A stretch of 64,000 nucleotides of DNA from Cyanidioschyzon merolae (lineage: Eukaryota): the NCBI GenBank assembly GCA_000091205.1, contig AP006483.2, one strand, 5' to 3'. This document shows, piece by piece, positions 11,227 through 64,000 of this stretch. A program made the position numbers and the translations under genes. Within the stretch, counting starts at the first letter, position 1. Each line of letters begins with the position of its first letter. The notes under the pieces were generated by a model, which was given only the letters and a program-made list of their open reading frames with translations, did no database searches and was not told the origin of the DNA.

Positions 11227-12246
11227 GAACCGATCCCTCGTCTCGGTGGTAAGCGCCGCGGTGCTGCTGCCGCACAACTGCAGCTGTGCGCGATCTGCTG
11301 CCGTCGAATGCCGTCGACGACGCGCTGTGCCTGCGGGAACGCGCAATGCCCTGCAGACGTCATTCGTTTGGGCGTCGTTGCTCCGGAAATGGGCGTCAAA
11401 GGGTACGCTCCTTGCGACGAGCTTGCTTGTTTTGGTCCCTGATACTGTGCTTAGCGTTTCGCGGAACCCGCTTCCGCATACATTCCCAGAATGGCGACGA
11501 CGGCGCAGGAACACGGACGAGGTCCGAGCGTCCGAGAATGCCAACAAGCGGTAAGCGTTTCTCCAGCGCTTCAAGTCTCATTGTTGTACCGCGACGCGAC
11601 CAAACATACCACGTACTAGAAAAGAGTACGAACGCGCCCTGAGCTGCATATCGTGACCGGAACACCCATGGCGCTGCAGCACCACGTTCGCTAGGGGCTT
11701 CAGTTTTCCGATCGTATATAGAGATGTTCTCGGGGATGCGTCCAGTTGTCATATCTACGGAGGATCGTGCCAGGCACATATTCATCGCTCCGAGCACGCA
11801 TAATCTGCCTATGCTTCGCTTTATCCGTATGTGACAGCATGCCGATCAAGTGCCCCGTACCCATAAAGCCAATCCCCATCGAAGCCGTATTTTCATAGCA
11901 CTCGCATTCGGAACGCTCCCAGGATAGACGCACACTCCAGGTAGGACGTGTACGCTGTACACACGAGTCTATGCATGCACGATTCACTGATTTCTTCGAG
12001 CAAATGTTCATGCATGCATGCATGCACTGCGATGGACACGTCACCCGCAGCCTCGACGAGTGCACGCATCGTGCGCACGCATCGTCGGGCAACGGCTGTG
12101 CGTACAGCGCTCGCTGCGCGCACACGCTCCCTCCGCACTCATTGATTCATTCTCTTTCGTGTTTTTCACGCGACAACGTGCGTGCGCTACTGTACAGGAA
12201 CGTGCGCAAGAGCGTTCCGGTACACCCCGGAGCACTTGGTGCACCC

Positions 12247-23056: not shown

Positions 23057-23657
23057 CAATTGGCAACTGACAAGTTAGGACAATGGAAATTGCGTCATGT
23101 CCACGATCTTTGGTTCGAAACTTGTCTGGAAGCCTAAGGTCTCGCATAGCGGAAGCGATCGAGACGGCGGCTGGGTGCTCTCAGGGTATTCGGCACGTCG
23201 TAGCATAGGACATGAGCACCATGTTATGCGAGGCGTGAACCACGAGTGCATCAACTGCTGACGTCGGGTTACCGTTGGCCTCGCAGGACCCCAGCGTTAG
23301 CTGCTTTGAGCGATCGCATACGAACCATTCCCAATGGATATCAGGATACATGACTGGAGAGAAGCCATCTGGACACCGAGGAACGCTCGTTACCCTCGGT
23401 GTCATTAGTAGTTGCCGGCTTGGTGAATAATGCACATGTGTGGGTCCAAAGTCTCCTGGCGCTCTCAGCGAAGTCAGCAAGACTCCCGCGAACAATAGCA
23501 CTATGCTTACAATCATGACACGAAAACGCTGCACGGTCAGTCCGTCGACAGCATTTCACAGCACCAGCGTCGAGTGCCAGCTCGTGCGCCCATGCGTCCA
23601 ACAGGGCAGCGACAGGGCGAGGCGCTTACTGCGCCAGCCGTCGTCTCCGACGCCACC

Positions 23658-23905
23658 ACTAGTATTCGTAATATTTGCGACACCAAGCTAGCGCCATAGA
23701 GACAACTTCGCAGTGTAATGCGTTGGTCAGGTGCAGCGGTTTCGCACGCCCACTGAAGGCATCGCTGCAGCGGGTTGCAACAACTAGTATTTGTAATATT
23801 AGCGACACCAAGCTAGCGCCATAGAGACAACTTCACAGTGTAATGCGTTGGTCAGGTGCAGCGGTTGCGCATGCCCACTGAAGGCATCGCTGCAGCGGGT
23901 TGCAG
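23658..23905. repeat. Tandem direct duplication, 2 units of about 125 bp
   Basis: The unit starts at actagtattcgtaatattTgcgacaccaagctagcgccatagagacaacttc... at 23658 and again at 23783. The two copies differ by about 5 substitutions. Confidence 0.85.
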
Positions 23906-42600: not shown

Positions 42601-43135
42601 CCCTCGGGGCAAACGTATGCGCCCAGACTGAGAGCTCTCGCGACGTCCGCACCTCACGTCAGGATTCGGAGCCGGTTCAGCTCGGATCGACGCGCCAGCA
42701 CAATGCCAAAAAGTTCTGTCTGCACAGGTTTAGGCCACAACATTGAAAGTACAACGCATTTCAGTTCGTTGCAGTGCAGTTTCGAAGACAACAAGGCGTG
42801 CCTGCGGTAGTCCCAGTGGAGTCATACGCTGCGAACTTGCCACTGCGGGGAAACCGCACCATATGACCATTGCGCAGCAGTGGTGCTCTCGGCGAAGCGT
42901 TCACGGGAAACTTGCTGGAGTCGGGGTCTCGGAACACTTCCAGGAAGCCTGCTGAACAAGCGACTCACCCTCGATCTATACCAGGGAAGCAGCCTAGGCG
43001 AACCGCTGTGTCCGACACACACACACACGTAAAGACTGGCAAAGGTTGTTCCGGAGCTCGTGTCTTCGCAGTCGTACAAACGGCTCGCGCCGTCGAACGA
43101 GGCTTCCAAGAAAGCGCGTACGCAGCTGTTCCGCA

Positions 43136-46100
43136 ATGCCGCTTCCGTCAGCACAGACGCGTCGCTTTATTAAAAGAGCAAGAGGTGCTGGTGCCACTGG
43201 GCAGGCCTCGGTGCTCCGCGTCTCCCGGGAGCACTACTTGCGGAGTGATCTACCGCTGCCTCCGGAGCCAGCCCTGCGGCCGTTTCTCTTGGTACCCGAC
43301 ACGAACGTAGTGCTGCGTGCAGCGAGCCTTTTCGAACTCGATGCCGTCCAGGAGGTTGTCTTTTTGCAGACCGTGCTGCAGGAGACCCGCAAACAAAGTC
43401 CAGAGACCTACGATCGCATACGGCGACTGTTAGCTTCCCCGGAAGCGAAGCGCCGACACCTCTACCTCTTCAGCAATGAACACTGTGCAGCAACGTTCTC
43501 GGAGCCACTAAAGGGTGAGTCACCAAACGACTACTACGACCGGCTGATTCGCAAGTCTGTGGCGTGGTTGAATACTCAGTACAACGCACTGCAGGGGCCG
43601 CGAGTGGTGCTCCTCACCGAGGATCGCGAGAACGCTCGTCGAGCCAGAGACGATGATCATCTGGTTACCTTCAGCCTCGCGCAAGTGGATGCATGGTGTG
43701 CGGGCGCTGCAGACACGCGAGTTAGGGACCTAGTGGCAGACTCTGGCGGTCACCATGATGCAGCACTGAACGAAAGCGCTTCGGAAAAAGCGCATGCAGC
43801 ACCTGCGTCCAGGACGGAGTCTGCGCCCTACCCGGAGTACTGGCCAGTCGACAAGGTTGAACGCGCGCTCGCCAGTGGTAAACTGTTCCGTGGCGTATTT
43901 CGTGCAACCATGTATGAGCCGTTGGAGAGCGGTGTAGTGGTCATTCGGTCGCCAGCGGGAAATGCGGAGCCCCAGAAGACACAGGTCGCCACACAAGTGC
44001 AGCCAGCGCTGCGCATTCGGGTCCAGGGCGCTGCCGCCGTGAATCGTAGCGTTGACGGAGACCTCGTCGCTGTGCTACCACTGGACGGCGTTGTCGACGG
44101 AGCAGCCAGTGCTGGTCGAAATGCGATACCGACCATCGACGCAGACGCCTTCAGTAGCGTGACAGAGCAGGTGGTGACAGCTGCCTCTGCACTGGGATCC
44201 GAGTCCTCGGATCCGCTGGCTTCGACGCCTTCCCAGGGGCCTCGTCTTGGGAAGATTGTTGCAGTGCTTGAGCGCCGTTGGCGTGCGCAGTACTGTGGAT
44301 CGCTGCAGGCCAAATACACCGCAGATACATTGAGTTTCCAAGGTCGCAGACGACACCTCTTTTTGCCGGTGGATCGGCGGATACCCCCGATCCTACTGGA
44401 GACACTGCAGGCAGCGTCTCTCTACGGCAAGCGGGTGGCTGTTGCTCTTGATCGCTGGGATACCCAATCGCGTTTCCCGGTTGGTCATGTGGTCAGCGTG
44501 CTGGGGCGCATTGGCGATGAGCAAGTCGAAACGCAGGTTTTGCTTCTGGAGAACGGCATTGTGACCCGACCGTTTTCGGAGGCGGCGCTAGCGTGTCTGC
44601 CTCCACCAGACTTTTCCGTTGCGCCTGCCCCGATGGATACCACGCTGGTTGGTCGCCTCGATTTGCGGTCTATGTTTGTTTTCAGTATCGACCCACCGGG
44701 GTGCACCGACATCGACGATGCGTTGCACTGCCGCCTCGTGGATCGGAGCAATGGACAGGGAGCAAATGCGAGAGCGTCGACTCGCCTTCAAGTTGGCGTG
44801 CATATCGCTGATGTGGCGAGCTTCGTTCGAGCAGGGACAGCACTCGATGAAGAGGCACGGGAGCGTGGCTGCACTGTCTACCTGGTGGACCAGCGCATCG
44901 AGATGCTGCCGGCGCTGCTAACGAGCAACCTGTGCTCGCTGGTTGCGGGCAAGGATCGGTATGCGTTCTCGGTTCTCTTCGAGTTGGACGTTGAATCTGC
45001 CCAGATTAACGATGTCCAGTTTACACGCAGCATGATTAGGTCACGAGCATCGTTGACCTACGAACAGGCTCAGTTGATGCTGGATGCATTGGTTGTCGAC
45101 AAACAGAGCGCGAAGCAACTGGGGATACCGCCCGAGCTAGGCGAAGCGCTGCCGCTTCTAGCCCGCGTTGCAGGAAGACTGCGGGCTGAACGACTCGCCA
45201 ATGGTGCGCTCATTCTCGCGTCACCGGAGATCCGTTTCGAGCGAGCGGATGGTGAGAGCCCGAGTCCCAGCGTTGGTTCAGGCTCCAGTTGTCGCAGTTT
45301 TGACACGCACCACCTCGTCGAGGAGTTTATGCTGCTCGCAAATGTGACGGTAGCTAAGCGCATTGTGCACCAGTTTCCGCACTCGGCGTGCTTGCGCCGA
45401 CATCCTCCGCCGAGTGTCGAGCAGTTTGAGCCACTGGTACGGGCGGCAGCAGCATACGGAATCGAGATGCACGTGGATTCGTCCAAGGCGCTTGCGGCAA
45501 GTCTCGACGCCGTCTCAACGACCTCAGCTGGCCAAGAGGACCCACTGCTGGAAGAGCTGTTTCGGATGCTTGCAACTCGTTGCATGATGCAGGCTGCATA
45601 CTGCTCCGCTGGCTCGGCTCCTGCGTCATCCTACTACCACTACGGACTCGCAGTGCCGCTGTATACCCATTTCACGTCACCGATACGGCGCTATGCCGAC
45701 ATTATTGTACATCGCCAATTGGCAGCAAGCTTGGGGTATGAGGATGCTCCTGGTGAGTTGCTCATGAATGAGCAAGTCGAACGTATCTGTGAACACGTGA
45801 ACGAACGCTATCGCAATGCACAGGCCGCAGGACGAGCGAGTTCTGCGCTCCATGTGTTGCTCTGGTTCCATCGGCAATGCCAACGCCCAGCTCATGAAGC
45901 ACGCGATACGGCCTCGATGCTAGAGACAGACGGCCGAATTCTGCGATTCTTGTCGACTGGATTTGTGGCGTACCTGCCCAAGTTTGGTATTGAGGGCGTC
46001 GTTCGCGTAGACGGTGCAGAGACCTCCTGGGTATTGAGCCCTGATTCGCAAACGATCCTCCATAAGGACTCGGGAGTGACGTACCGTATTTTGGGCGCTT

Positions 46101-46282
46101 GTCGTATTCGAATTGTTATTGATGAAAATGCTGTCGGTGCCGATCGTATTCGATTCGAGCTGCTTCCTAGGAACGCCAACAACGCCGTTCAAAGTCGAAC
46201 GACGTCGGGCGTGTGCAGTAGTGGCGGCAACCGCGCCCAAGACGAAACGTCTCCTACTGACGTACAGATGCCACCAAAATAA
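43136..46282 (+). CDS. DIS3: Exosome catalytic subunit DIS3/RRP44 (PIN plus RNB exoribonuclease)
   Basis: 1049 aa from ATG 43136; the track start is a TTG. The N-terminus (VLRVSREHYLRSDLP ... LLVPDTNVVL) matches the Rrp44 PIN region. The RNB catalytic motif FSIDPPGCTDIDDALHC is present, plus RNase II-family C-terminal S1-like sequence. Confidence 0.85.
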   Translation: MPLPSAQTRRFIKRARGAGATGQASVLRVSREHYLRSDLPLPPEPALRPFLLVPDTNVVLRAASLFELDAVQEVVFLQTVLQETRKQSPETYDRIRRLLASPEAKRRHLYLFSNEHCAATFSEPLKGESPNDYYDRLIRKSVAWLNTQYNALQGPRVVLLTEDRENARRARDDDHLVTFSLAQVDAWCAGAADTRVRDLVADSGGHHDAALNESASEKAHAAPASRTESAPYPEYWPVDKVERALASGKLFRGVFRATMYEPLESGVVVIRSPAGNAEPQKTQVATQVQPALRIRVQGAAAVNRSVDGDLVAVLPLDGVVDGAASAGRNAIPTIDADAFSSVTEQVVTAASALGSESSDPLASTPSQGPRLGKIVAVLERRWRAQYCGSLQAKYTADTLSFQGRRRHLFLPVDRRIPPILLETLQAASLYGKRVAVALDRWDTQSRFPVGHVVSVLGRIGDEQVETQVLLLENGIVTRPFSEAALACLPPPDFSVAPAPMDTTLVGRLDLRSMFVFSIDPPGCTDIDDALHCRLVDRSNGQGANARASTRLQVGVHIADVASFVRAGTALDEEARERGCTVYLVDQRIEMLPALLTSNLCSLVAGKDRYAFSVLFELDVESAQINDVQFTRSMIRSRASLTYEQAQLMLDALVVDKQSAKQLGIPPELGEALPLLARVAGRLRAERLANGALILASPEIRFERADGESPSPSVGSGSSCRSFDTHHLVEEFMLLANVTVAKRIVHQFPHSACLRRHPPPSVEQFEPLVRAAAAYGIEMHVDSSKALAASLDAVSTTSAGQEDPLLEELFRMLATRCMMQAAYCSAGSAPASSYYHYGLAVPLYTHFTSPIRRYADIIVHRQLAASLGYEDAPGELLMNEQVERICEHVNERYRNAQAAGRASSALHVLLWFHRQCQRPAHEARDTASMLETDGRILRFLSTGFVAYLPKFGIEGVVRVDGAETSWVLSPDSQTILHKDSGVTYRILGACRIRIVIDENAVGADRIRFELLPRNANNAVQSRTTSGVCSSGGNRAQDETSPTDVQMPPK

Positions 46283-46760
46283 CATACCATCGGAGGAAAT
46301 TCCCTTATACCTCCCCTGCGGTATTCCTCGGCGAGCTACGTCGAAGCTCATCTACGATCGTTGTGATCTCTAAGCGCAGCGCTGCGGAACCCTTGGCACT
46401 ATGTACCGGCGAAGTTGTTGTTCGAAATGGTCAGAGATCTGCCTAGTTTCTGAAAAGGCATTGAGCGCTTGTGCTAGTTGCGCTGAACGCTAGACAATCT
46501 ACGGGAGATTTAGCTCGGACTCTGGACAATTGACGGGCGGTCACTCGTGCCGCTACGCAAAAGAGGTTTTTGACTGGATACGCACACTTACGCGATCGAT
46601 TCTAGCCGATGACGTGATCGGCAGCTTTCGCACCGGAGACGTCCTAACCCAAGAAAGTACAAGGCATGTTTGTCTCTGATCCGCTGTACCAGGGCTAAAG
46701 AGTAGTTCGCTCACCTGCTGTAAGTAGAGCACCGTTTCCGCTGGGTACCGCACGTGACGG

Positions 46761-47867
46761 GTGCTTCGCAGCTCGATACCGTCACCACTGCCAGCGTCCG
46801 CTTCCTTTGGTAATGCAGCGTTCGCCTGTAGCGCGCCGGCAGCACGCGCTGCATCTTCGAAAGGGCCCGAAGCAGTCGCAGATCGCCGTGATCACTGGCG
46901 CGTCCTCTGGGGTCGGTCTGTATGCAGCTCGCGCTCTGATCAGCAAGGGCAACTGGCACATCGTCATGGCATGTCGTGACATTGATCGGGCGGAACGCGC
47001 AGCAAACAGCGTGAACCTTCCAAAGGACGCCTATACAGTGCTGCATTGTGATCTGGATGATTTCGCCTCTGTACTAAAGTTTGTGAGAGAGCTGTCAAGT
47101 GTGGCGCGCATCGATCACCTAGATACCCTGATCTGCAATGCCGCTATCTGGCATCCGCGGGACAAGAAACCGCGTTTCACGGTGGACGGCATCGAGAAGA
47201 CCATACAGGTTTGCCATCTGAGCCATTTGCTTCTATGTCGGGAGCTGTTGCCGAAGCTGAAAATATCGCGCGGGCGCATTGTGTTTCTGACGACTCAGAC
47301 ACACTCGCCGAATTCGCTGCCGGGAAAGATCCCCCCGCAGGCTCGTCTCGGTGATTTGTCTGGTCTAGCCGCGGGGCTTGGTCCGCAGACGACGGGCATG
47401 GTGGACAGTGGCCCGTTTGAGCCCACAAAAGCTTACAAAGACGCCAAAGCCGCGAACGTGTTGACAATGAAGGCGCTCAGTGATCGATACGGCCGCGACG
47501 GGGTGACCTCTGTGGCGATTTTTCCGGGATGTGTCGCCGACAGCAACCTCTTCCGCGAAAAGCGTGGCTGGTTCCGCTGCGTATTCTTTCCGATTCTTCA
47601 AAATACATCACTCGGCAATACGTTCCGAATGATGAGGCCGGACGCCGCGTAGCCGAAGTGGCGCCCCAGGGACAGTTCCCGGACTCGGACTGGTATTATC
47701 AGTGGCGTGGCAAATATACGGAAGGTCGACAGAAGACGAAACCGCAGGTTATTGAACCAACATACGAAATCCACAAGGCAGATCAGTTTTTCGAACTGAG
47801 TCTTGATCTGATCGACCAGGCGTTGCGGCGGCGAGGCCTCAAGTCGACTATCTTGGCCCCTGTCTAA
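46761..47867 (+). CDS. POR: Light-dependent NADPH:protochlorophyllide oxidoreductase (LPOR), with two apparent +/-1 frameshifts
   Basis: Frame 46813-47652 gives VITGASSGVGLYAARAL...WHIVMACRD...YTVLHCDL...NAAIW...GDLSGLAAGL...AYKDAKAANVLTM...FPGCVADSNLFRE, matching LPOR throughout. The C-terminal continuation (KYITRQYVPNDEAGRRVAEV...WYYQWRG) is in another frame (47529-47867), shifted at a caaaa run near 47600. A Ser/Ala-rich transit-peptide-like N-terminus (MLRSSIPSPLPASASFGNAAFACSAPAARAASSKGP) is in a third frame (46761-), shifted at ggg/ccc near 46865. Confidence 0.8.
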
Positions 47868-50655: not shown

Positions 50656-53391
50656 ATGTTTCGTGCTCGCTCTCTGGTACGTGCCCTGGGAGTAGCTGTT
50701 TGTCTATTGTTGGCGGCGACGTTTTCCGTTTCGCTTGTGGCTGCGTTGTCGCCTGTGAGTACGGTTAGCTGGACCTGGATAGGTGGAGAGACGGGTGTCA
50801 ATAATCCTGGTAATTATGGAACGCTGAACCAGACTTCAGCAGATAGTGTTCCAGGAGGCCGTTCCGATTCAGCAGCCTGGGTCGGAAGTTCGAGCTTGGT
50901 ATACTTGTTTGGCGGGCTTGGGTATGGAAACCCATATCTGAGCTACTTTAATGATCTATGGACCTTCAACTTGACCTCATATGAATGGACGTGGATAGGA
51001 GGTTCCTCAGAAACCGACCAACCAGGAGTGTACGGCACAGTCGGCACAGGCAGCCCAAATAGTATACCCGGCAGCCGTTACGGAAGTGCGTATTGGCAGA
51101 CGGACGAGCACCATTTTTGGTTGTTTGGAGGACTCGGCTTCGATGTGAACGGTAATCAGGGCGAACTGAACGACATGTGGCGGTACGATACTGAAACGGG
51201 AATCTGGACGTGGTTCAGTGGGAATGATACTTTTAACGCCAATCCAGTCTATGGACCGAAGGATATCTACAGTCAAATTTACAACCCCGGAGGCCGAGGT
51301 AGCGCGGCATTCTGGCTAGGCGCGGACGGTTTGTTTTGGATTTTTGGTGGTGCGCGTATTGCGTATGATCTTCTGTCAGATCTCTGGTCATTCAACCCTG
51401 TTACATTCGAATGGGCATACAGAGGCGGATCACAACTTGTTAACCAGCCTGGTAACTATAGCGCACCTGGCGTGGCGAGCAACTCAAATGCCCCAGGTGC
51501 GCGCGGCTTCTCGCATACGTGGACAGATTTTGAAGGAAATCTCTGGTTGTTCGGCGGCTATGGCTACGGAAACAGCACAGCACTAGGGCAAGGCGAATTG
51601 AATGATCTCTGGGTCTACAACATAAGCCAATCCGTATGGATTTTTATCACAGGGAATACCACTATTAACAATCCAGGATCATATGGAAATCTCGGTGCTT
51701 TCTCCCCAACCAGTTACCCAGGTGCAAGATTCTCAGGCGTAAGTTTTGTGGATCCTTTGGGTAATCTACAGCTGTTTGGCGGTGCGGGACTCGCCAATAC
51801 AAGCGAATCCTTTGGCAATTTGAACGATCTTTGGGTATTTGATATCACACTTGGTCAGTGGGCGTGGATCAATGGAAGCCAAAGTGTGGATGCTCTTTCA
51901 GTATATGGAGTTTTGAACGAATCCGACCCGAGTGTTGTACCTGGTGGTCGCTTTGGACCAGCTTTCTGGAACACCAGTGGGACTGATCCGCTCATATTTG
52001 GTGGAAGTGGATTCTCGAACACGAGCAGAGGTGGCTTTCTCAATGATGCCTTCGCTTTGAGAGAAACGTTCTTTACGCCTACCTCTACGCCTACGCCAAC
52101 ATCAACGCCAACTCTGACACCTACAATTACGGCAAATGCTACTGCGACCCCGACACCCACGCTGACACCTACACCAGTCTGCACCATTGAGATCTGCGGC
52201 TCTCCAGGACAGTACACCAACCAGGACGCTTGCGAGCAAGTCGGATGCTGCTTCAACTCCCAGACAAACGCGTGCACCCTGAAGAGCGTCTCAGTGGCGT
52301 GCAGCGCTGTTCCAGTGACGCAGCGCGTCCCCTGCGGCTGGAGCTACATCTACCCCGACGAGTGCACTGCGATACCGGGATGCTGCTGGCAGCCCACAGC
52401 GAACGGCATCCTCGCGCCCTGGTGCTACTACGACATCAACCATGCACCGCAGGCTTCTGTAGCGCTGCAGGAGGTGCAGGCACCAGTACCCGTCTGCCCG
52501 TCACCGGGAGCGCAGCGCCAGCCGTGCGGCAACGCGGGTATCAACCAGTTTACATGCTATGCCCAGGGCTGCTGCTACGACTCGCAGGCGCAGAACCAGT
52601 GGGTGCAGAACGGCAAGCAGCAGAGCGACTTTGAGTCGAACCCGTACTGCTTCCAGCCCGAGAAGACGTGCGCGGTGGGCGAGTTTGAGCGCCAGCCGTG
52701 CACGAATGCGGTGAATCAGAACCAGCAGCTGAACAATAACATCAACAATAACCAGTTTGTGCGTCTGCTGAACACGCTGCTGTACGGAGAGCAGCATCGG
52801 ACGCAGCGCACGAGCTACTCGCCGCAGCAGTGTCTGGAGGCTGGTTGCTGCCTGGGGCTCGGCAACGAGTGCTTCCAGCCGATGACCGAGTACGTGTGCC
52901 AGACCTACGGGTACGTCTCGAACTCGCTGAGCGGCACGACCGGCAACGTGTCGAACTCGAGCTATATTGCTTGCGGCCCCGAGTGCTGCAACGCCGAGAC
53001 GCAGAACTGTACGTACAACCCCTTCAGCAACAACAACAACCAGCAGCAGCAGCAGCAATTGCAACAACAGCAACAACAACAGGTGCTGCTGCCGTCATTC
53101 TGTGTGTGCAAGGACCCAACGAAGCAGTGCGGGACGTACCTGATCCCTTCGGATAACCTTGTGAACAAGGTGCGTTGCTGCCGCGCTGACGAGGAGTGCA
53201 TCAACAACCAGTGTGTGGTGATTAGTCCAACACCGACTCCGAGTCCCGTGGCTGTGACAGCGACACCCTCTGCGACGGTGTCTGCAACAGTCTCTGCGAC
53301 AGCTTCTGCGACGGTGTCTGCGAGTGCATCAACGAGTGCATCAGCGAGTGCTTCAGTTTCAGCTTCTGTGTCGACGTCTGCGAGCGCCTAG
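50656..53391 (+). CDS. Secreted modular protein: signal peptide, about 6-blade kelch-type beta-propeller, Thr/Pro linker, 4 trefoil-like Cys-rich modules, poly-Q/N, and Ser/Ala/Val/Thr repeat tail
   Basis: 911 aa. Signal peptide: MFRARSLVRALGVAVCLLLAATFS. Repeated kelch blades follow (...WTWIGG..., GGR..AAW...LFGGLG, LNDLW.Y/F...). The linker is TPTSTPTPTSTPTLTPT.... The Cys modules CG....C...GCC(F/W/Y)...W(C) read e.g. ICGSPGQYTNQDACEQVGCCFNS and VPCGWSYIYPDECTAIPGCCWQP...WCYY. Poly-Q derives from (CAG/CAA)n at 53035-53090. The terminal ATVSATVSATASATVSASAS... comes from 12-bp repeats. Confidence 0.6.
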   Translation: MFRARSLVRALGVAVCLLLAATFSVSLVAALSPVSTVSWTWIGGETGVNNPGNYGTLNQTSADSVPGGRSDSAAWVGSSSLVYLFGGLGYGNPYLSYFNDLWTFNLTSYEWTWIGGSSETDQPGVYGTVGTGSPNSIPGSRYGSAYWQTDEHHFWLFGGLGFDVNGNQGELNDMWRYDTETGIWTWFSGNDTFNANPVYGPKDIYSQIYNPGGRGSAAFWLGADGLFWIFGGARIAYDLLSDLWSFNPVTFEWAYRGGSQLVNQPGNYSAPGVASNSNAPGARGFSHTWTDFEGNLWLFGGYGYGNSTALGQGELNDLWVYNISQSVWIFITGNTTINNPGSYGNLGAFSPTSYPGARFSGVSFVDPLGNLQLFGGAGLANTSESFGNLNDLWVFDITLGQWAWINGSQSVDALSVYGVLNESDPSVVPGGRFGPAFWNTSGTDPLIFGGSGFSNTSRGGFLNDAFALRETFFTPTSTPTPTSTPTLTPTITANATATPTPTLTPTPVCTIEICGSPGQYTNQDACEQVGCCFNSQTNACTLKSVSVACSAVPVTQRVPCGWSYIYPDECTAIPGCCWQPTANGILAPWCYYDINHAPQASVALQEVQAPVPVCPSPGAQRQPCGNAGINQFTCYAQGCCYDSQAQNQWVQNGKQQSDFESNPYCFQPEKTCAVGEFERQPCTNAVNQNQQLNNNINNNQFVRLLNTLLYGEQHRTQRTSYSPQQCLEAGCCLGLGNECFQPMTEYVCQTYGYVSNSLSGTTGNVSNSSYIACGPECCNAETQNCTYNPFSNNNNQQQQQQLQQQQQQQVLLPSFCVCKDPTKQCGTYLIPSDNLVNKVRCCRADEECINNQCVVISPTPTPSPVAVTATPSATVSATVSATASATVSASASTSASASASVSASVSTSASA

Positions 53392-54614
53392 GAAGCAGCG
53401 ACATCTTGAGCTCCACGGACTGCGTTGGCGGACGTGTCAACTGTTAATTTGCTCACAGTCTAGATCACGTCTATGCTGATACTCTGTTGCGACAATATTC
53501 CACTCATGTTCACAAGACCCGAGAGTACGAATGAACGAATGCGTTAATGCGGATAAATGTGCGCGGAGTGTCATCTGAGGTCCTCTTCGGGGACTGACAT
53601 TCAGAGATCAGATGAACAGAAAGAATGGACCAGAATTTGCTTTTGGAACGTAAAGGAATGATTACCTCTGCCTATGAGCTTGCCCCCGATGATAGCCTTG
53701 GTGGTAATGGCGGTATATTGGTACCCTTTCTTCTCTTTGTAGTCAGAATACGGTTTCCGAGTTGCATGTAGCGAGTGTGTCTGCAGTAGGGCGTCTGGAA
53801 CTGTTTTTTTAGTTTCGTTGTACTTGAGCACATTCTAGTCCTGAGGAGCGGTTCTGGAGCAAGTTTGACTCGATCCGTACAACCGCAAATTTCACCAAAA
53901 TCCGATTCCTCTTGAGGAAAAGCTAATATTCGTGACGCCTGCATACGGGCTCCGGCTCCGCTTGGCACGAATGGAAGCAGGGCCGCCAGCCTCACAGCGC
54001 ACTTATAGCTTGTTCTGTCGGTCGAGGCATCGTCTCGATATATTCACCACTGTTGCCTACCGTTGCTCGTAGGCTACGTCAATAAAACCGTCTGAAGTGT
54101 TGTGCTGATTTCCGGATTATGTTTATGTCTTGTACACTAGAAAAAAAACGAGAACGAAGTGGTGGTAAGCCGTGAAGACGTAGATGCGCAGTTACCGTTA
54201 CTCGGTCCAGAGGCACACCATGCCAGGCAGTCACATCCTGGGACGAGCTGTACGCTATGTAAGCATTAGCACAGCACCTTGAGCACAGCTGGAGGCATTC
54301 TAGAAGCGGCCAGTATCGATTCTAAACAATTGATCTTGTTCTATATCATTGCAAACAAATTGGTAAACGGATCCGTTGCTAATAAATGGACACAGGGCCC
54401 TCGGAAGATAGATAAACGACAAGGCAGCTGATGATGTATCGAATACAGAAGAACTCGAGTTGCCCATTTTCCACATTTTCTGTCACATCAGTCCTGTTAC
54501 AGCCATGGCAGCGATATCTTCACGAAAAGCATCAACTATTACCACATATACTCTAGGTACTCTTCGCAAATACGGTCTGAATAAGCGACGTAACGCGCCC
54601 GCACCGAACGCTTC

Positions 54615-56943
54615 TCAAACGACGAACGTCGCCGCCGGCCGTGTACGGTAGTGGAGGGAAAACCGCGCCTTGGACAAATCGTCTCCAACTGATGTGCAGA
54701 CGCCCCCCGCCTTTCTCGACGAGCCACCCACTACTGCTTCCAACTTCTTCTCATATAGTTCGACTTTGAGAGGTTGTCCAATAAAATCCTCTTGTGTCCA
54801 CTCTGGAGGTCGTTTCTCCAGCACCGCACATCTCCGTATATTGATAGCGGCATGAAAATCTCGGTTCACGAACTCCATACATTTCGTGCCGTTGGGAGCT
54901 GTACTCACCAATACGAGTAACCCTTGAACTTTCGCCTTCCTTTCCATTTGCTCCTCCGCCAGCGGTCCGTACTTTTGCAATTTCCTCAGCGCTCTTCTGG
55001 CACTTTTCCATCTCCACCCTCTGAAGCGTGCAGCCCAGTTCTTGGTATGTATAGGACGTCCGGAACTCATATACAGGTATCGTAACGAGACGCCGGGCGC
55101 ACTCCTTGTACAGCTTCGTCGCTGGAGCTGGCGTAGTTCCTTTTCTGTTCTTCCAGCGCCCTGCTCCATACGCTTCTACGAGCCTCTGACGGTCATCCCC
55201 CTCAAAGGCGCTCAACTGATTGAAAAAATTCGCAAACGCCCGCTGCTTCACACCGTATAGATTCATTCGCAGACGAGCCCACCGGGGCTTTCTATACTCC
55301 TCCCACAGCGCATCCCAATGGGCAACACGAAATTCCATGAATTTCCGAAAAGCTTCATGGACCGCTCCGCGGCTCGTCGCCTCGCTCAAAGCTTCCAGGT
55401 GATGCTTTATTCCTGCATTCCACGTAACGATTATCATCCTTGCATTCACTACAACGGATTCTCGATAGTATCTCGCTCTCGAGAATCTCAGCAGACGCAT
55501 GTCTTTCTGGCGTAAATTACCGTCCATGCCATCTTCCGCACGCTTCGGTGCTGCGATGGTGATGATATTCGTGTTCCCAGGATCCGCGCCAACCACAATG
55601 TCTTTATCCTGCACTTCCTGTGTGGCAGGATCCGCCTCTTTCTTTCCTTGATGCTTCGTCGCGTCAACCATAAAGTCGTTATCCTGCACATTCTGTTCGG
55701 CAGGATCCGCCTCCTTCTGACCTTCATCCTTCACCGCGCCAACGACACGGTCGTTATCCTGCACTTTCTGCATCACAGGTTCCGCCTCTTTCTCTTTTTC
55801 ATCCTTCACCGCGTCAGCGACAAAGTCGTCATCCTGCACCTCCTGTGTCGCAGGATCCGCTTCTTTGATTTTTTAATGCTTCGCAGAGGGCGAAGCGAAA
55901 GGCACAATCGGACGGTCCACTTTCAAGCGCCGATAGTGTACATACAAGGTTACTCCATCGGTCTCGATCAACGCAGTGAATACCTTTTGGCTTCTCACTT
56001 TGAGCCGTTTGAAATTGTAGATGTTCTTCAAGTACGTCGCCCGGTTTTCACCGGTGAAGTCATCCCTGCTAACAGTGAACACTGGACTGATCTCCTTCAT
56101 GATGCCGTAAAACACGTCCGAATCGATATTCACGAAATGTGACTTGATGCTGCACATTGGAACCACGTTGAAGCGCTTACCCATTAGGACAGCCTTCCGT
56201 CTCTCCCAATCTTCTTTTTTTTCTTCACTCAGCTTCATCTCCGCATTTCGCTCGAGTTCTCGGTCCAGAAACACGAAATAGCGCAGAATAAGACGATAGT
56301 ATCTTTCCTTATCTTTTTTCAACTCTGATGTCTTGTATGTTGGATTCGCCGGCCCCAAGATTGCACGGTGCTCTTGTATAACCGAATGGATTACAGAAGT
56401 ATCATTCGTGCTGTCGTTAAACGCCTTCGTGTCGACGAATTCGACATCACCTTCATGCTTGCGATCGTTCTTGATGCCATTGATAATCACCTATACTCCT
56501 TTGCGAGAGACGCCCGGGTAAAGTGCAAACACGGCGCGTATCATGAAACGTTCTAGGTTCATTGTCAAATGGTTCGTCAGGTTCGTGAGGTTCTTCATCT
56601 CCCCATAGTCGTAAATACTCCGGTCCCCCTTGTATCGAGTACCCTCGAAGCCGTAAAAGGGATGTTTTTCGTGGAGGGCATGAACCCGCTCGTTTTCCTC
56701 CCGCGCTTCCACTGTTGCAAGCATCAGGTATCGAATAAAGGTCTCGTCGAATAACTCGTCCAGAATCTCGACCGTTTCCATGTACGTCACGTCGCGATAC
56801 ATATCCCTCGCAAAATGCATCAGCCCTGACCATGCCTTGATAATACTCTTGGAGTACGAGTCGACACGTTTTTCGATAGCGTCTCGCAAATTTTCCCTGT
56901 AAGGATGCTTGATATGATTAAGAAGACAGGCTTTCACCATCAT
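54615..56943 (-). pseudogene. TnpB/Fanzor-like RuvC nuclease, about 770 codons: one in-frame TAG (56491-56493) and at least two frameshifts (fragments 56491-56943, 55873-56490, 54751-55839, 54615-55169)
   Basis: RuvC-I motif VVGADPGNTNIITIAAP (Asp codon 55582-55584). RuvC-II-like VYEFRTSYTYQELGC...EKC. RuvC-III-like CMEFVNRDFHAAINI (Asp codon 54858-54860). The long N-terminal region is homologous to copy A. The protein end GQPLKVELYEK is conserved in all copies. Confidence 0.65.
55579..55875. repeat. 75-bp tandem repeat (about 3.5 units) inside Fanzor-like copy B, encoding 25-aa acidic repeats (QDNDxVVGAVKDEGQKEADPAEQNV)
   Basis: The units atcctgcac(t/a)t(c/t)ctg...caggatccgcctc(t/c)tt... 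begin at 55606, 55681, 55756 and 55831. Copy A has a single unit at the homologous position. Confidence 0.85.
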
Positions 56944-58416
56944 CTCATTCTACAGTCATCTTTCCCGCCGCCTTCGACCTAGGGCCTCCCGCTTTCGGTT
57001 CTTCTTCTTTTCCTGTTCTTCTGGACTCGGCTCTGTTTTTTGTTTTTATTTCTGGCAGCAGGCGACACTGGGCCTCCGGGATCGTCGACTTGCTTTTTCA
57101 TAGCTTTTCTTTTCATTTTTTTGTGTGAAAAAGAACGCTCTTTGAACCCTTCTATTATATACTGCGAGAAATCAATTGAATATGTTTACTTGAGGGTTGA
57201 GACACAATCGAACTGGAAACTATGATTTGTTACGACTTCCACGCAAATACAGCTTGCCCGTTAGAACATCAAGAAAACGTGTCGTCACGGTCGCGTTTCT
57301 CTTCGAAGGCGACAGATGCGTCGTGTCTCGCAAGTGCCATACTTGGAGATGCACGTATCGAGCGCGCCATACAGGAAAAAGGACAGTGACCTACGATTTA
57401 CAAGAAACGATATAAAATTTTTTCCCGCTCTACGATAAGCGTTTAAGGGGAAATAGATCGCCGTTCTATCGGAAGCTTATGTTCGAGGCGGAAGGTCCCG
57501 CGAGCCGGTCGAGTCTACCGGGCTAGAGCTCGGTATCCCTCTTAAGTGGCTGCTGCCGCTGCTGCTGCAAGACCTGCGTAGCTCGTTCGCAACGCATTTT
57601 ATCCTGAGACTATGCACAGGATGCTGCGTTGGGCCTCGCCCTGGTCGCAGTGGAACCCTAGTACAGCACTTCGCGCTGACGCAGGTAGTACGTCTTTCTG
57701 CGCACTTTGCATGTTCCCAGAATGACAAATAGCCCTGATTCCGTTTCAAGTGAATCATTCCTCGAGCGGACGCCCTTAGTGGTATGGCAAAGCCGTTCTG
57801 TCTCTGTACAGCACCTGCTTGAGCGGTATAAGCGCTACAGCGGGTGCTCACAACAGGCTCGGCGCTCGATAGAACATACGAAACGACCAGTATATCAGAG
57901 AGGTAGTATGGATAATGGGACTTGAGGACAGGTGCACTATGATCGAGATATCCCCGGAAGCCATCGTGCGTTCCGAATTCTGGGATGCATGGGCAATGCA
58001 AACGTTCTTTCATCGAAAAGAAAAAAACGCTCCGGAGGCGGACTCGTCATCGAGACGCGCATCGCTCTGGATCGAATCTCCGGAAGGCGCTTCTGGGCGA
58101 TCGCGAAAGCGCTCAAGCGCATCTTTGTGTCCTCAACGGATAGCATGATTTATTCGGGGCGCTCAGTCTCGAGCGTTCCCTCTGACTTAAAGCAATAGCT
58201 TCGTGGATCCTACAGCTGTGTTGTCAAAGAGCACTGTACCTAGTTTTGGCGAGGCCTATAGTGCTGGAGAACAAAACGATCACGGGTTTGTAGCGATCTC
58301 GGCACCAGTGCTGGAAACAACCCTGCACTGGAGCTCGGGCGATCTGAAACCTGTAGTCGGACTTTTTCGAGGATCTGTCTCGCAAGGAAACAAATCGTGG
58401 AACTGTGCTCTTTGGA

Positions 58417-59481
58417 ATGACGTCGGGGATCGACGAGGCAGCGGCTGAGCTTCAGGGAAGTCTCTTTGGGGAGGTCTCGCCTGCGATCGACTCGCCGGGT
58501 GCGGCGCTTGCACGTTCGTACCCGGTCCGCATCACCGTGGTTGGAGCTGGTGACGTTGGCGTTGCTTGCGCCTATAATATTTTGACCCGAGATATTTGTA
58601 GTGAGCTGGTACTGGTGGACGTTCTCAAGGACAAACTCAAGGGTCAAGTTATGGACTTGCAGCATGGAGGTGCGTTCTACAGCACCCGCATCCGGGCTGC
58701 CGAGTCCTACGAGGATACAGCACATTCGGCAGTATGTATTATAACGGCAGGTGTGCGTCAGCGGCCCGGAGAAAGTCGTCTTGAGCTCATGGATCGCAAT
58801 GCCGCATTGTTCAAAGGCATTATTCCGCCCCTGGTGCAGTATTCGCCGAACACAATCCTGTTGGTTGTGAGTAACCCCGTTGATCTATTGACACATCTAG
58901 CGTGGCAGATGAGTGGCTTGCCCCGCGAACGTGTGATTGGCTCAGGGACATATTTGGACTCTTCGCGTTTCCGCACACTTCTGGCGCAGCGGCTGGGCAT
59001 CGATACCGCTTCTGTCCAGGCCATGGTACTGGGCGAGCACGGAGACTCCTCGTTCGTGTACCGGAGTGGTATTACGGTTGGTGGCGTGCCGTTGCGAACA
59101 TGCTTCGAGCGCATGACCGACGCTGCGAGCGCGTCCACAGCATTCTATGATCTGGTGAAAGGTGTCCATCAGCAAGTTGTAGCCGCGGCTTACGAGGTCA
59201 TTAAGCTGAAAGGCTACACCAACTGGGCCATTGGCAGCGCTGTTGGAAGCATCGTTACAACGATTGTGCATGATCGGCGCAAAGTGCTGCCAATAACGAC
59301 GCATGCGGGCTCGTTGCGAGGCCTCGAGTCGGCGGATGTATTCTTGTCGTTGCCTTGTGTGCTAGGTCGGAATGGTGTCGTTGAAGTACTACAAATACTG
59401 CCGTTCATGGAAAGTGACGAGAAAGAAGACCTCCAATCCAGTATAGAGGCACTCCAGAGCACGCCGAAGAAAGCATCTTGA
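58417..59481 (+). CDS. LDH: L-lactate dehydrogenase
   Basis: 354 aa from ATG 58417; the track start is a GTG. RITVVGAGDVGVACAYNIL...LVDV..DKLKGQVMDLQHGGAF...ITAGVRQRPGESRLEL...VVSNPVDLLT...RVIGSGTYLDSSRFR...LGEHGDSS match the LDH nucleotide-binding, substrate and catalytic-His motifs. Confidence 0.85.
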   Translation: MTSGIDEAAAELQGSLFGEVSPAIDSPGAALARSYPVRITVVGAGDVGVACAYNILTRDICSELVLVDVLKDKLKGQVMDLQHGGAFYSTRIRAAESYEDTAHSAVCIITAGVRQRPGESRLELMDRNAALFKGIIPPLVQYSPNTILLVVSNPVDLLTHLAWQMSGLPRERVIGSGTYLDSSRFRTLLAQRLGIDTASVQAMVLGEHGDSSFVYRSGITVGGVPLRTCFERMTDAASASTAFYDLVKGVHQQVVAAAYEVIKLKGYTNWAIGSAVGSIVTTIVHDRRKVLPITTHAGSLRGLESADVFLSLPCVLGRNGVVEVLQILPFMESDEKEDLQSSIEALQSTPKKAS

Positions 59482-60589
59482 GCATGTTGCCTGCGCATCG
59501 TAACGCGTTGGATGCGGATCGTTTACAGGGACGTTAATCAAATGCCTCGTCGAAGTGCGGGCTCTGCACAAGCGTGCTCGGTCTGTACTCAAAATAAGCG
59601 GATGGACAAGGAGGACTGAGATATGCTGGATACCTATGCCAAACTGGTAGGTCTTGGCACCGTACAAAAGGTGTGGAGGGGAGCGTCCGTAACCATCTCG
59701 GCGAGCTTGTTCCAAATGGACAGCATTGCTGAAGGACAAGGTGGCACCAGAATTGCAGCTGCAGAGTAGCGTTCGCCTACTATCATCATTGTAACCTGCT
59801 AGTCGTGTCATGGATACCGGACGTGCTGGAGTTCGCATCCGCAACAGCGAACAAGGATCAAATCAACTGACTCAAAATTCTCCAAAGCGATGCGTGGATG
59901 AAAGCTGGTGAAAGTTGCGGGTCTGGTACGGCATAACGTACGCTTACCCGGATGCCGATATGCATCGCGCCTGGCCCGAGATACCCTGGTTCAGGTCAAC
60001 CATTCTAAACCGCAGGATAAAAGTATGCCATGATTTAACGTTCACTGATGTTGGCTGGACGGCATCGCAACGCTCCACGAACCTGGGCGCGGCGCCGAAG
60101 GCTTAGTTTCCGAGTATGACCGTGACAGACTTTGCTCTATGCGTACGGATCTGGAAAACACGAGCCGGAAGTGTGCATCAGCACGCATGGGCGACGAATA
60201 AAACCCTTAAAGCGACGTACGAACAGTGACCTAACGATGCAAGTGGAACGAACCGAATACCCTGAGGAAGGTATGATGGCACAGCTTCTGCCTTGAGAGC
60301 AGCTGCACAAGCGCTTCAGTGCGGTAAAGCCGAAATCGTGCCGAAACGTCCGAGTCGCGTCAGCGCTTCTAGTGAACAGGAATGTGCCTCCAGCTTCTCT
60401 GACGTTCCTCTCGCGTCCCAGCAATTCTGGTACAAAGTTTCGCTCTATGCAGCACAGGCGCTGATGCAGCGCTCCTTCGGAAGCCCTGCCTTCCGCAAAC
60501 TTACACCGAGACGTTCCGTACGCAGCTATCGTGGTTATGCTTCAAAACCGGAACGGTATTGCAGTGTCTTGGAAGCGTCGGCTAGAGCT

Positions 60590-63060
60590 TCTGAGGCCGA
60601 AACGTCTCGGACGACCTCCGCACCCGACGACGACAACAAACACCTTTCAAAACAAAAACGTTGCTGCTGGCAGTGTACAGTACTGGCGAGAAACTCGCCC
60701 TAGACCAAAAGTCTCCAGCTGACGTGCAGACGCCTCCCCGTCTTTTTCGACCGGCCACCTACTGCGGGTACCCTTGTTTCTCATACAGTTCCAGTTTAAG
60801 AGGTTGTCCAACAATGTTCTTTCGTGTCGACGCTGGGAGTCTTTTGTCTATTCCCGCACATCTCCGTAGATTGATTCCAGCGTTAAAGACTCGGTTCGCG
60901 AACTCCATACGTTTCTTGCCGATGGTAGTCGTAATTAGTAATGCAAATAGTCCACGAGCTTCTCCCCTCCTTTCCATTTCCTCTCCCGTCAGCTGTCCCT
61001 TACTTTTTTATATCATGAGGACTCCGCTGGCACTTTTCCATCTCCACCCTCTGAAGAGTACATCCCAACTCATGGTGTGTATACGATGTTCGGAACTCAC
61101 CTACAGGTATCGTAGAGAAACACAGTGCGCATTCTTTGTACATTCCTGCCGTTGGAGCTGGTGGAGTCCCTTTTTTTCGGAGCCCAGCTCTCTACTCCAT
61201 ATATAACAACGAGCCTCTGACTTGATCCTCTTTCAAGGCGTTCAACCCATTGAAAAAGTTCGCGAATGCGTGATGCTTACCACAGCACGGATTCATACGC
61301 AAACGACCCCAGCGGGGCTTTGTATACTTGCCCTACAGCGCCACGGAATGAGCAACACGAACTTCCATGAAATTCAGAAAAGCTTGAATGTCCGCTCATC
61401 GGCTCGTCACCATGCTCAAAGCCTCCAGGTGATCCTTCATTGCTACATTCCACGTAACGATCTTCTTCCTTGCATTCATTACACCGGATTCTCGATAGTA
61501 TCTCTCTCTCGAAAACCTCAAAAGACGCATATATTTCTGATGCAAGGTGCCTTCGGTGCAATCTTCCCCGAGCTTGTGAACAGCGATGGTTCTGATATTC
61601 GTGCTCCAGGGACTAAGGCCGACGCCAAAGTGGTTTTCATGGGGCTTATACGTTCCATAGCCCGTAAACCTGTGTTCGTTCTTCGGCAACGCCCGTAACG
61701 AAGACGGGATAGGACGAGCTGCCTTCAACCGCTGATGGTGTACACATATGTGCGCCACATCGAGATCGATTGTTCCAGTGAATAACCTTTTTTTGGCCGG
61801 TTCGGGACGCTTGAAATCGAAGATATTCTTCTCGTAGGCGTCCCGATCTTCACCGGAGACCTATTTGTTGATTACATCGAGCTCTGGACAAATCTCTATC
61901 GTGAAGTCGTGAAGTACTACGGAGTGGTTACTCACAAAATGTGACTTGAACGCGCATAACCGACCGACATTGAAGCGCATCTGGAGAAGACTTCAATGTC
62001 GTTTCTCCCACTCGTCATTTTTTCCTCACTCAGCCCCATGTCGGCTCTGCGGTCGAGGTCTCGGACAGAAAACATGAACCAGGGCAGGATGAGAGAGTAA
62101 CAACTCTCTCCGTCGTTTCTCATATCCGAGAGTTTTCTCTTGGGTTGACATGACCCAAGACCGAACGATGTTTTAGAATAGTGGCGCGAATTACAGGAGC
62201 ATCATTCATTATCCTGCGTGATGTCCTCTTGTCGACGAGTCTGATCTCCTGTTCATGCTGGCGATCGTTCTTCATACCATCGATGATTGCAAGCATCGCT
62301 TCGCGAAATATGCCCGGGTACAGCACAAAGGCGACGCGTATCATGAAACAATCGAGGTTTGCCATTCTATGGTTCCTCATATTCGTGAGGCACCTCTTTG
62401 CCCTGTATTCGTAAATGTCTGCGTCACCCTTGTGTGCAGTACCACTGAGGCGGTATTTGGCCTTATTTTTAAGGAAGGCATGCACTCGCTCACTTATCCC
62501 CGATGTTTTCCCATTAAAAACAATCAGGTAGTTGATGAAAGTCTTTTGGAAAATTTCTTCCGGAAACATCACTTTTGCGATGTGCGTTACGTCCCGATGC
62601 AGGTCGCTGTCCAAATGCCAACGTCCTAAAGAAAAGCTCCAAACATACCCGGCCTACGATCCGCCACGGTTTCTGATAGCGTCTCGCAACAATCAGTCGT
62701 ACGGATCATTGATATGTTGGAGAAGATAAGATTCCACCACCATCTTGTCGTACAGAAGTCACAATTTCGGCCTTCGATGTAAGGCCCCCCATGTTGCTTC
62801 TTCTTCTTTTCCTGACCCTCTTCGCTAGGCAATATGTCTCATTTCATTCTGACATCCGGCAGCACCGGCCACCCCAAACCCACTACATCATACTACATAA
62901 GTGTCAGATTTTTTGGGAGAACATCTCATTGGACGCTTCTGCTTTGAACGGCGAGAATCTGGTGAATAGAGTTACTTTAAGATTGGAACGCCACTGAAGC
63001 CAAAACTATACTTTGCTACGATTCGATCGCAAATACAAGTGGCCCCGATAGAGCAGTCGC
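60590..63060 (-). mobile_element. Fanzor/TnpB-like element, copy C (most degraded; 1-3.4 kb from telomere)
   Basis: ORF fragments 62120-62614, 61932-62123, 61396-61758 and 60759-60977 are homologous in order to copy B (...ESCYSLILPWFMFSVRDLDRRADMGLSEEKM..., ...STNIRTIAVHKLGEDCTEGTLHQKYMRLLRFSRERYYRESGVMNARKKIVTWN..., ...MEFANRVFNAGINL...NIVGQPLKLELYEKQ). The conserved 5' block lies at 62990-63050 and the conserved 3' block at 60600-60758. Confidence 0.6.
60759..62614 (-). pseudogene. TnpB/Fanzor-like nuclease remnant (RuvC-I Asp lost: STNIRTIA; RuvC-III reads NRVFNAGINL, Asp lost)
   Basis: See the element feature above. There are multiple frame breaks and gaps between fragments, and the catalytic Asp residues of motifs I and III are substituted. 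Confidence 0.55.
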
Positions 63061-63975
63061 TCCAGTAGAGGTCATTACCGCGTTTTTCTTGATCGGAGAG
63101 GCGCACGTTGGGTGACGTGACGGCCAGATTTCGCGATGCGTTACCAGGACGCACGACAGAGAAAATGCAAAAAAATTAACCAATATGCACAAACAGGATA
63201 GCAAGTACTATTGCAACCTAGTATAAACGTAAAGAAGATGATTTCGCGTATGGTCAAAGTGTTACATTTAATCGGGAGGTCTGCGTGCCGCGAGACTACC
63301 GGCCTGCCCTCCGTGTGACTTTCAGTGGAGAGTGATATGAGACACTTGGGCAACTCATCCAAAACGCAATTAATTTCGGGACTAGGAGCAGGCATGCTGC
63401 GTCTGAGCACTAACACCGTCGCGGTGAACAGATAGTACGCCGTTTTACGCTACCGCATGCAAATCGTCTGCAAGATCCGCTTGGAGGCTCCAAAGAAAAT
63501 AAATCTCCCTGATCCCATGTAGCATGAACCAAGCCCCTTCCAACGCGCCCAGTGGTATGTCAGAGCTGCCCTGCTTCCGGAGTGCACCCACAGCGGCGAT
63601 AGAGAGGCTACAACGGGTGCTCAAGGTAGGTAAACGGCGCACGATAGAAAGTCAGATACAATCAGTACAGCCGAGATTAGGTAAATGCGACAAAAAGTAC
63701 CGAAATTGTTCAGCGTGACGAAGGATTTTCCGAAACAAGTATCAATCCGGCAATCTCGGCGTCTGGTCAGTAGAACAGGCTCTGTCGAAACAAACCAAAG
63801 CAAAGCGCTGGAAGGAGATCCATAAGGGCACTGGTGTGCTGGATGTAGATAAGAAAGATGCGTATTTGCTCAGATCGTACCGCCGGAAAAATACCCGAAC
63901 GAACCTGGATTGGTAGACATCGCTCTGACAGATGCTTTTTCTCTGAGAACACCGCAGTAATGGGGCATTGCGTCG

Positions 63976-64000
63976 AATGGGGGGAATGGGGGGAATGGGG
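63976..64000 (+). repeat. Telomere repeat (AATGGGGGG)n, G-rich strand running 5'->3' toward the window end; truncated by the window edge
   Basis: aatggggggaatggggggaatgggg. AATGGGGGG is the telomere repeat reported for Cyanidioschyzon merolae. Confidence 0.8.

Follow-up and report, generated by a model that had tools for sequence, protein, structure and literature searches.

An L-lactate dehydrogenase (LDH) gene at the right terminus of chromosome 1 (1R) of Cyanidioschyzon merolae 10D lies between two decayed repeats of the Fanzor1 type, and the near-identical DNA that it shares with a second chromosome end begins and ends on such repeats. The DNA analysed (hereafter the window) is a 64-kb stretch that forms this chromosome end, telomere included. 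The parts of the window, the five-copy LDH family and the dead repeat family have already been published. What is new is a modest observation: at two different chromosome ends, the homogenised LDH core has its edges on Fanzor copies. The explanation preferred here, at a probability of about 0.55, is that the Fanzor copies are passive homeologous recombination substrates that delimit an LDH core copied between chromosome ends.

Fanzor Copies and Identity Steps Around the LDH Gene

The features on which this finding is based are given below, with repeat limits set by blastn among copies A, B and C.

54607..57936, minus strand: Fanzor1-type repeat copy B, full-length form of ~3.3 kb, a pseudogene (blastn against A and C; family profile)
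56995..60600, no strand: LDH core block, ~97–100% identical to the chromosome-11-type locus and all related contigs
58417..59481, plus strand: intact L-lactate dehydrogenase gene CMA145C (CmLDH1), from Pfam and 100% identity to BAM78829.1
60639..62814, minus strand: Fanzor1-type repeat copy C, 5'-truncated and heavily decayed (blastn; contig homologues)
6175..9183, minus strand: Fanzor1-type repeat copy A, full-length form of ~3.0 kb, a pseudogene lying 48 kb proximal, which defines the element limits
Contig Ga0078972_1003857 (L013, the same as L038 and L054), 43 kb: NUMOD3 gene, UFD1, a Fanzor copy in the same orientation, and LDH

Self-comparison of the window identified these three copies of one repeat, all in the same orientation. 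They are 65–76% identical pairwise, and B and C share no exact match longer than 30 bp. Copy C lacks the 5' ~0.9 kb of the element, and its 25-amino acid (aa) repeat region has been deleted internally. The original prediction, made from the letters alone, had placed two same-orientation Fanzor-like copies around an intact LDH gene in the last 10 kb, and this arrangement is present, with coordinates that agree to within ~100 bp. The LDH open reading frame (ORF) has no interruption and matches two Pfam domains over their full length (PF00056 Ldh_1_N, E 4e-43; PF02866 Ldh_1_C, E 2e-26). Its product is identical at 354/354 positions to the 10D protein BAM78829.1/XP_005535115.1, whose record is placed on the 422,616-bp chromosome 1. 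Recombinant CMA145C (CmLDH1) has been characterised biochemically and reduces pyruvate (PMC11387445).

Near-identical LDH paralogues at other chromosome ends, which had been raised as a conjecture, are already in the literature. Five C. merolae LDH genes, more than 99% identical and all subtelomeric, have been described (CMA145C, CMC188C, CMI306C, CMJ002C, and CMK006C; PMC11387445), and CMJ002C is N-terminally shortened relative to the others. This five-copy family has been attributed to subtelomeric gene duplication, a process described for the Cyanidiophyceae by Cho et al. (2023, Nat Commun 14:10).

The flanks of LDH were compared using environmental metagenome contigs that carry 99%-identical LDH genes, and the paralogous ends compared form one pair, 1R and a chromosome-11-type end. 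A scan of viral contigs with LDH gave nothing relevant. In 10D, UFD1 (BAM80409.1) and the chromosome-11 LDH (BAM80408.1, CMK006C) have consecutive accessions on an 852,849-bp chromosome, and thus the contig L013, in which UFD1 is followed by a Fanzor copy and LDH, represents the chromosome-11-type locus and is no assembly chimera. Four contigs from other samples (L044, L045, L055, and L056) are 99.1–99.5% identical to L013 and confirm the UFD1–Fanzor adjacency, all of them ending inside the Fanzor copy. Beyond the upstream Fanzor copy the proximal DNA of the two ends is unrelated, with a trefoil gene on chromosome 1 and UFD1 on the chromosome-11-type locus. The duplication edge must therefore fall at or within the upstream Fanzor element.

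Identity profiles and difference counts, taken per 100 bp, place that edge more closely. Across the Fanzor body (54612–57010) L013 is 72–88% identical to the window, except for three 75-bp units that are missing in L013, whereas from 57011 to 60340, where L013 ends, identity is 97–100% except for one 9-bp indel near 57511. The proximal step, from ~80 to ~99%, lies at ~56995–57000, ~55 bp upstream of the Fanzor start codon and ~0.94 kb inside copy B, and both elements are aligned in register across it. The stretch 57000–60340, shared at 97–100% with one other end and preceded by unrelated proximal DNA, has the make-up of a duplicated subtelomeric block.

A second step is found on the distal side. 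Five contigs (L011, L012, L015, L009, and L010) show 0–7 differences from the window per 100 bp (mostly 1–3) through 60599, and 8–16 from 60600. This distal step at ~60600 is the 3' end of copy C, where identity falls to ~91%. Pairwise identity is 99.3–99.9% in LDH, 97.9–98.6% in its 3' flank and 90–96% in the copy-C body. Contigs from four samples (L011, L012, L015, and L039) run past LDH into copy-C homologues that are 90–96% identical. One of them, L011, is 99.8–99.9% identical to L013 where the two overlap, and the chromosome-11-type locus therefore also has a copy-C homologue and carries Fanzor on both sides of LDH. The comparison of paralogue flanks for the same element, which had been put forward as a check, thus gave a positive result at this locus. 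All seven contigs that reach upstream of 57936 are collinear with the window into Fanzor, as are all seven that reach beyond 60639. Because both identity steps fall on Fanzor copies, the repeats delimit the shared LDH core. This core takes in ~0.94 kb from the 5' end of Fanzor B, the 480 bp that separate the element from LDH, the gene itself and 1.1 kb beyond its 3' end.

It is very improbable that the chromosome-11-type junction or the identity steps were produced by chimeric metagenome assembly across repeats. The majority of contigs do end within the LDH region, and the short contigs L032–L034 and L043 contain reiterated sequence that resembles assembly loops. However, the finished 10D genome has UFD1 next to LDH, UFD1 adjoins Fanzor in five independent assemblies, and the distal step recurs in contigs from four samples.

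The reiterated sequence itself comprises two to four reiterations of the ~250-bp LDH 5' region (58191–58442), at L032 1–1112, L033 1–645, L034 1–369 and L043 1–458. These are probably assembly loops through paralogues, although they could be a real tandem partial duplication (cf. the truncated CmLDH4). The unaligned left ends of L032–L037 and L043 were considered as new flanks of LDH and rejected as such, as they consist of these reiterations.

Proposed Repeat-Delimited Exchange and Competing Explanations

The coincidence of repeats and block edges is most likely explained by homeologous exchange. Imperfectly matched Fanzor copies resident near different chromosome ends would supply the similarity, and break-induced replication or gene-conversion tracts between ends would start or stop within them. 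LDH and everything distal to it would thereby be carried onto another chromosome end, and later exchange would keep the ~3.6-kb LDH core (~57.0–60.6 kb) homogeneous. We infer recombination within the repeats as the cause of the steps, and likewise the direction and timing of transfer. The original prediction had suggested the elements as a possible vehicle of LDH amplification. The same Fanzor–LDH–Fanzor layout and the shared-block edges at the chromosome-11-type end are in keeping with this idea, but copies B and C, at just 65–76% identity, are unlikely to recombine efficiently with each other. The co-location of two repeats is not striking on its own, since two copies would fall in one terminal 10 kb with a chance of ~0.01 per end (Poisson; 253 copies in 16.5 Mb) and ~0.4 such ends are expected among 40.

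Several points weigh against repeat-delimited exchange. It is drawn from one paralogous pair, 1R and the chromosome-11-type end, and for the latter the sequence is that of related environmental strains and not of 10D. Classical homologous recombination would find little to act on in copies that are 65–88% identical, with longest exact matches of 30–44 bp. The point at which copy C ceases to align with copy B (B 57015) is also that of the proximal breakpoint, and the proximal step could thus represent a modular build of the element, or a Fanzor body that turns over at a different rate, and not a crossover. On the distal side, the copy-C body (60640–62700) differs by 4–10% from L011, L012 and L015, loci that are otherwise 98–100% identical, with patches of 0–1% difference alternating with patches of 10–17%, and L012 is again ~99–100% (~99.5%) identical to the window at 62700–63499 before similarity decays from ~63500. 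This pattern suggests faster divergence of Fanzor bodies and not a block edge. In addition, the repeats are described as randomly distributed, at ~1 per 65 kb, in Nozaki et al. (2007, BMC Biol 5:28), and the LDH of Cyanidiococcus is already terminal without Fanzor (see below).

The main rival gives these observations a different meaning, and is a possible, if distinctly less probable, account of the locus. In it the repeats are bystanders: the whole Fanzor–LDH–Fanzor–distal unit would be copied by telomere-proximal break-induced replication or conversion that is independent of repeats, and the Fanzor bodies would then diverge faster than unique DNA. Either ectopic conversion from the ~250 dispersed copies would leave patches in the Fanzor bodies, or only unique DNA would be homogenised. 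The patchy divergence of copy C (0 to 17 differences per 100 bp) with ~99.5% identity regained distally is what such an account expects. The four versions of copy C are all 90–96% identical pairwise, their substitution spectrum is unbiased, and the proximal step is the limit of the element part common to truncated copies such as C; these points and the random distribution reported for the repeats also favour it. Ectopic conversion from other copies is a possible source of the copy-C patches. RIP-like hypermutation (repeat-induced point mutation) of copy C was considered as well and was unsupported, as transitions make up only ~52% of the substitutions. Two observations oppose bystander repeats. 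The DNA proximal to both upstream Fanzor copies is unrelated, which puts the edge of the duplication on the element, and the upstream bodies are ~80% identical, as different as unrelated family members and not mildly patched.

The identity steps also bear on the notion of a composite transposon, in which the two elements would have mobilised LDH as a unit, as IS copies do around a cargo gene. A same-orientation pair around one cargo gene, with the same bracket at a second locus, gives this notion its appeal. It was rejected, as it is contradicted by the positions of the steps: on the proximal side the shared unit opens within copy B, and on the distal side it closes at the inner end of copy C, so that most of copy B lies outside the high-identity unit and the outer element ends are not its bounds. 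Copy C has no 5' end, and both elements are dead. To our knowledge, no transposase is known for the Fanzor1 repeat family, and Fanzor is not itself a transposase. The window elements have no terminal inverted repeats, and target-site duplications are absent from the family (Bao and Jurka, 2013, Mob DNA 4:12).

Passive recombination between resident Fanzor copies is accordingly preferred to these alternatives, and it resembles processes seen at other chromosome ends. With the Y'/X, Ty and delta repeats of yeast, where break-induced replication operates, and in the segmental duplications of human subtelomeres, near-identical gene blocks are copied between ends and the junctions lie in dispersed repeats. 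The copies in C. merolae are far more divergent (65–88%) than typical recombination substrates, and the repeat here is a dead RNA-guided-nuclease element, not a retrotransposon long terminal repeat or a helicase element.

A Decayed Fanzor1 Family

The Fanzor-like label is justified because the family profile matches solved Fanzor1 proteins. A profile of 13 family members matched Fanzor1 structures in the PDB (9cf0, E 7.6e-11; 8gkh, E 6.7e-10; 9cer, E 9.5e-4), and the homology to the proteins of P. parasitica (9cf0), S. punctatus (8gkh) and G. theta (9cer) spans the RuvC-I "DPG" and the C-terminal "NRD." The relation was detected by profile only: Pfam gave nothing significant for the individual Fanzor ORF fragments, the stitched copy B or P0121, and phmmer found no match for P0121 in the PDB. 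P0121 (752 aa, uninterrupted) is the most complete metagenomic relative found, and the copy B frame is 68% identical to it. More than 50 related Fanzor ORF fragments are present in C. merolae-like metagenome contigs.

Further features of the elements are as follows.

54615..56943, minus strand: disrupted Fanzor1 reading frame of copy B, running from 56943 to 54615 (conceptual translation)
55584..55888, minus strand: 75-bp tandem repeat, four copies, encoding acidic 25-aa units within the Fanzor ORF
54595–54740, 60627–60772 and 6165–6308 in the window, and 6415–6560 in L013: 3'-terminal conserved hairpin regions
46185..46282, minus strand: ~100-nucleotide (nt) Fanzor 3'-end remnant, forming the last codons of the Dis3/Rrp44 gene

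None of the three window copies has an uninterrupted nuclease ORF. The copy B frame contains in-frame stops at 56491–56493 and 55873–55875, a frameshift near 54985 and two more stops in an N-terminal extension. Measured against P0121, copy A has three stops and at least three frame changes, and copy C has at least nine stops, at least three frame changes and a deletion. The number of 75-bp units is four in copy B and P0121, one in copy A and L013, and zero in copy C. The translation of copy B retains VVGADPGNTN, EFRTSYTY and FVNRDFHAAINI, which align with the corresponding Fanzor1 positions, and a split RuvC domain can be read in it (RuvC-I GADPG; RuvC-III NRDFHAAINI). The C4 zinc ribbon, placed between the [TS][TS] and RD motifs, is different: copies A and B and the uninterrupted P0121 have just two Cys there (ELGCTLQRVEMEKCQ), P0174, a relative at a greater distance, has only one, and the Pfam TNB domain reached an E value of 0.23, below threshold. 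Judging from these sequences, the C. merolae Fanzor1 family, including its relatives with long open frames, has lost the C4 zinc ribbon that defines TnpB/Fanzor.

A hairpin of the GGCGAG-TTTC-CTCGCC type is shared by six copies in the 3'-terminal ~150 nt, with a few compensatory changes, and this terminal region is the best-conserved non-coding part of the elements. The hairpin may be a remnant of an omegaRNA. An Rfam scan of the whole window gave no matches.

These characteristics agree with repeats described earlier from the genome. Nozaki et al. (2007) report a "WSV486-like" interspersed repeat with 253 genomic copies, all with truncated ORFs. Bao and Jurka (2013) describe the Fanzor1 element CMe-1A as ~3 kb long, present in ~150 copies that are ~80% identical to the consensus, and without terminal inverted repeats or target-site duplications. 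From size, copy number and the Fanzor1 of white spot syndrome virus in Bao and Jurka (2013), CMe-1A and the WSV486-like repeat are taken to be one family. Copies A (3.0 kb) and B (3.3 kb) fit the published description in their size, disrupted ORFs and lack of terminal inverted repeats, none of which was detected on the window elements. The likeness extends to ~70–80% identity between copies and to Fanzor1 homology, and no essential difference was found, so that the window copies are ordinary decayed members of the family. They differ from the characterised Fanzor1 endonucleases in that the family has no C4 zinc ribbon, the window copies are pseudogenes and the omegaRNA is putative.

The state of the elements bears on whether a nuclease could have driven the exchange. 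The original prediction had offered breakage promoted by the nuclease-family element as an alternative, and this part gained no support: the three window copies are pseudogenes, all 253 copies in 10D are reported as truncated by Nozaki et al. (2007), and the zinc ribbon is lacking even in uninterrupted family members. Present-day nuclease action by the window copies is not supported. An earlier role, in which omegaRNA-guided cuts near the element ends would have begun break-induced replication between chromosome ends while the family was active, is unlikely, although it would account for block edges at element 3' ends and some observations are compatible with it. Of the three block edges, two are at Fanzor 3' ends (60600–60639, and the remnant at 46185–46282 that abuts the POR block), the family has proven RNA-guided nucleases among its homologues, the hairpin in the 3'-terminal ~150 nt is conserved, and environmental relatives such as P0121 have long open frames. 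The timing argues otherwise, as the LDH blocks are ~99% identical and the Fanzor copies ~70–80%, which implies that the exchanges post-date the decay of the elements. The putative omegaRNA, in addition, has no Rfam match.

Other Features of the Chromosome End

Two further features complete the terminal part of the window.

62815..63974, no strand: distal segment without repeats, from copy C to the telomere (comparison with L012)
63975..64000, plus strand: telomere repeat (G)AATGGGGG, 2.9 units, cut at the window end, matching the 1R description in Nozaki et al. (2007)

The terminal GAATGGGGG, in 2.9 units, agrees with the C. merolae telomere repeat AATGGGGGG, and the same source gives ~2.5 sequenced telomere repeats for chromosome 1R. 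Proximal to the LDH end, the genes are arranged in the order Dis3/Rrp44 (43046–46282), POR-like (46807–47867) and kelch/trefoil (50656–53391). Nozaki et al. (2007) describe homologous subtelomeric blocks of up to 20 kb with gene types L (LDH), T (trefoil), P (POR) and H (hedgehog), and the POR, trefoil and LDH genes of the window correspond to P, T and L. The window thus fits the homologous subtelomeric elements in its succession of POR-like gene, trefoil/kelch gene, LDH and telomere. As far as the available portions of Nozaki et al. (2007) and Cho et al. (2023) extend, they draw no connection between block boundaries and the interspersed repeat, whereas here both edges of the LDH core lie on Fanzor. 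At 46807–47867, the POR-like short-chain dehydrogenase is divided between overlapping ORFs of 281 aa and 112 aa; a frameshift has probably made this subtelomeric copy a pseudogene.

The Fanzor 3' remnant contributes ~33 final codons to the Dis3/Rrp44 ORF and abuts the start of the POR block at 46292 (GGAGGAAATTCCCT). This Dis3/Rrp44–POR junction, where the subtelomeric domain has its proximal limit, is a third block edge on Fanzor sequence. In L012 the copy-C homologue and then ~1 kb of DNA in common with the window lead not into a telomere but into a 79%-identical homologue of the POR-block start (46292 onward). The GGAGGAAATTCCCT motif occurs twice in this contig (5963 and 6038), where the LDH module meets the POR-block homologue. 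The arrangement in L012 fits an end with POR-type genes distal to LDH. Chromosome 11L would qualify: its sixth gene is LDH, and Nozaki et al. (2007) report a "PH" element there. The short motif GGAGGRAATTCCCT of block junctions was not enriched in the window (1 found vs. 0.48 expected).

A 125-bp direct tandem duplication at 23652–23901, with two copies that are 94% identical, is unrelated to LDH and Fanzor.

Comparison With Cyanidiococcus

The sister genus gives an indication of the order of events. A 530-kb contig of Cyanidiococcus yangmingshanensis ends in canonical AATGGGGGG repeats, and LDH (73% identical) is situated 1.07 kb from them. No Fanzor-like sequence is present within 10 kb of this gene, and LDH is recorded on one contig only. 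A second relative (LDH 72% identical) likewise has a single LDH context without Fanzor. As the Cyanidiococcus LDH is terminal without Fanzor, its terminal position is independent of the elements, and LDH had probably been terminal before the repeats appeared in C. merolae. The presence of LDH at multiple ends is seen only where the repeats flank it, which is suggestive of a link between amplification and the repeats on a single comparison.

The telomere unit AATGGGGGG has been reported as unique to C. merolae by Nozaki et al. (2007), and it is also present in the sister genus Cyanidiococcus. At 11730–12126 of contig L002 (C. yangmingshanensis VWRR01000014.1), a variant (GAATGTGGT)n precedes the canonical (AATGGGGGG)n telomere.

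Implications for Subtelomere Evolution

Homeologous exchange between resident Fanzor copies would be no new class of mechanism, but an instance of repeat-associated subtelomeric exchange. It provides a concrete and cheaply testable model for how the homologous subtelomeric elements of C. merolae are delimited and spread. Past nuclease action, if true, would mean that a eukaryotic relative of TnpB shaped subtelomere architecture and amplified a metabolic gene. Dead Fanzor copies, which make up ~5% of a very compact genome, may continue to influence its structure by providing patches of similar sequence scattered through it.

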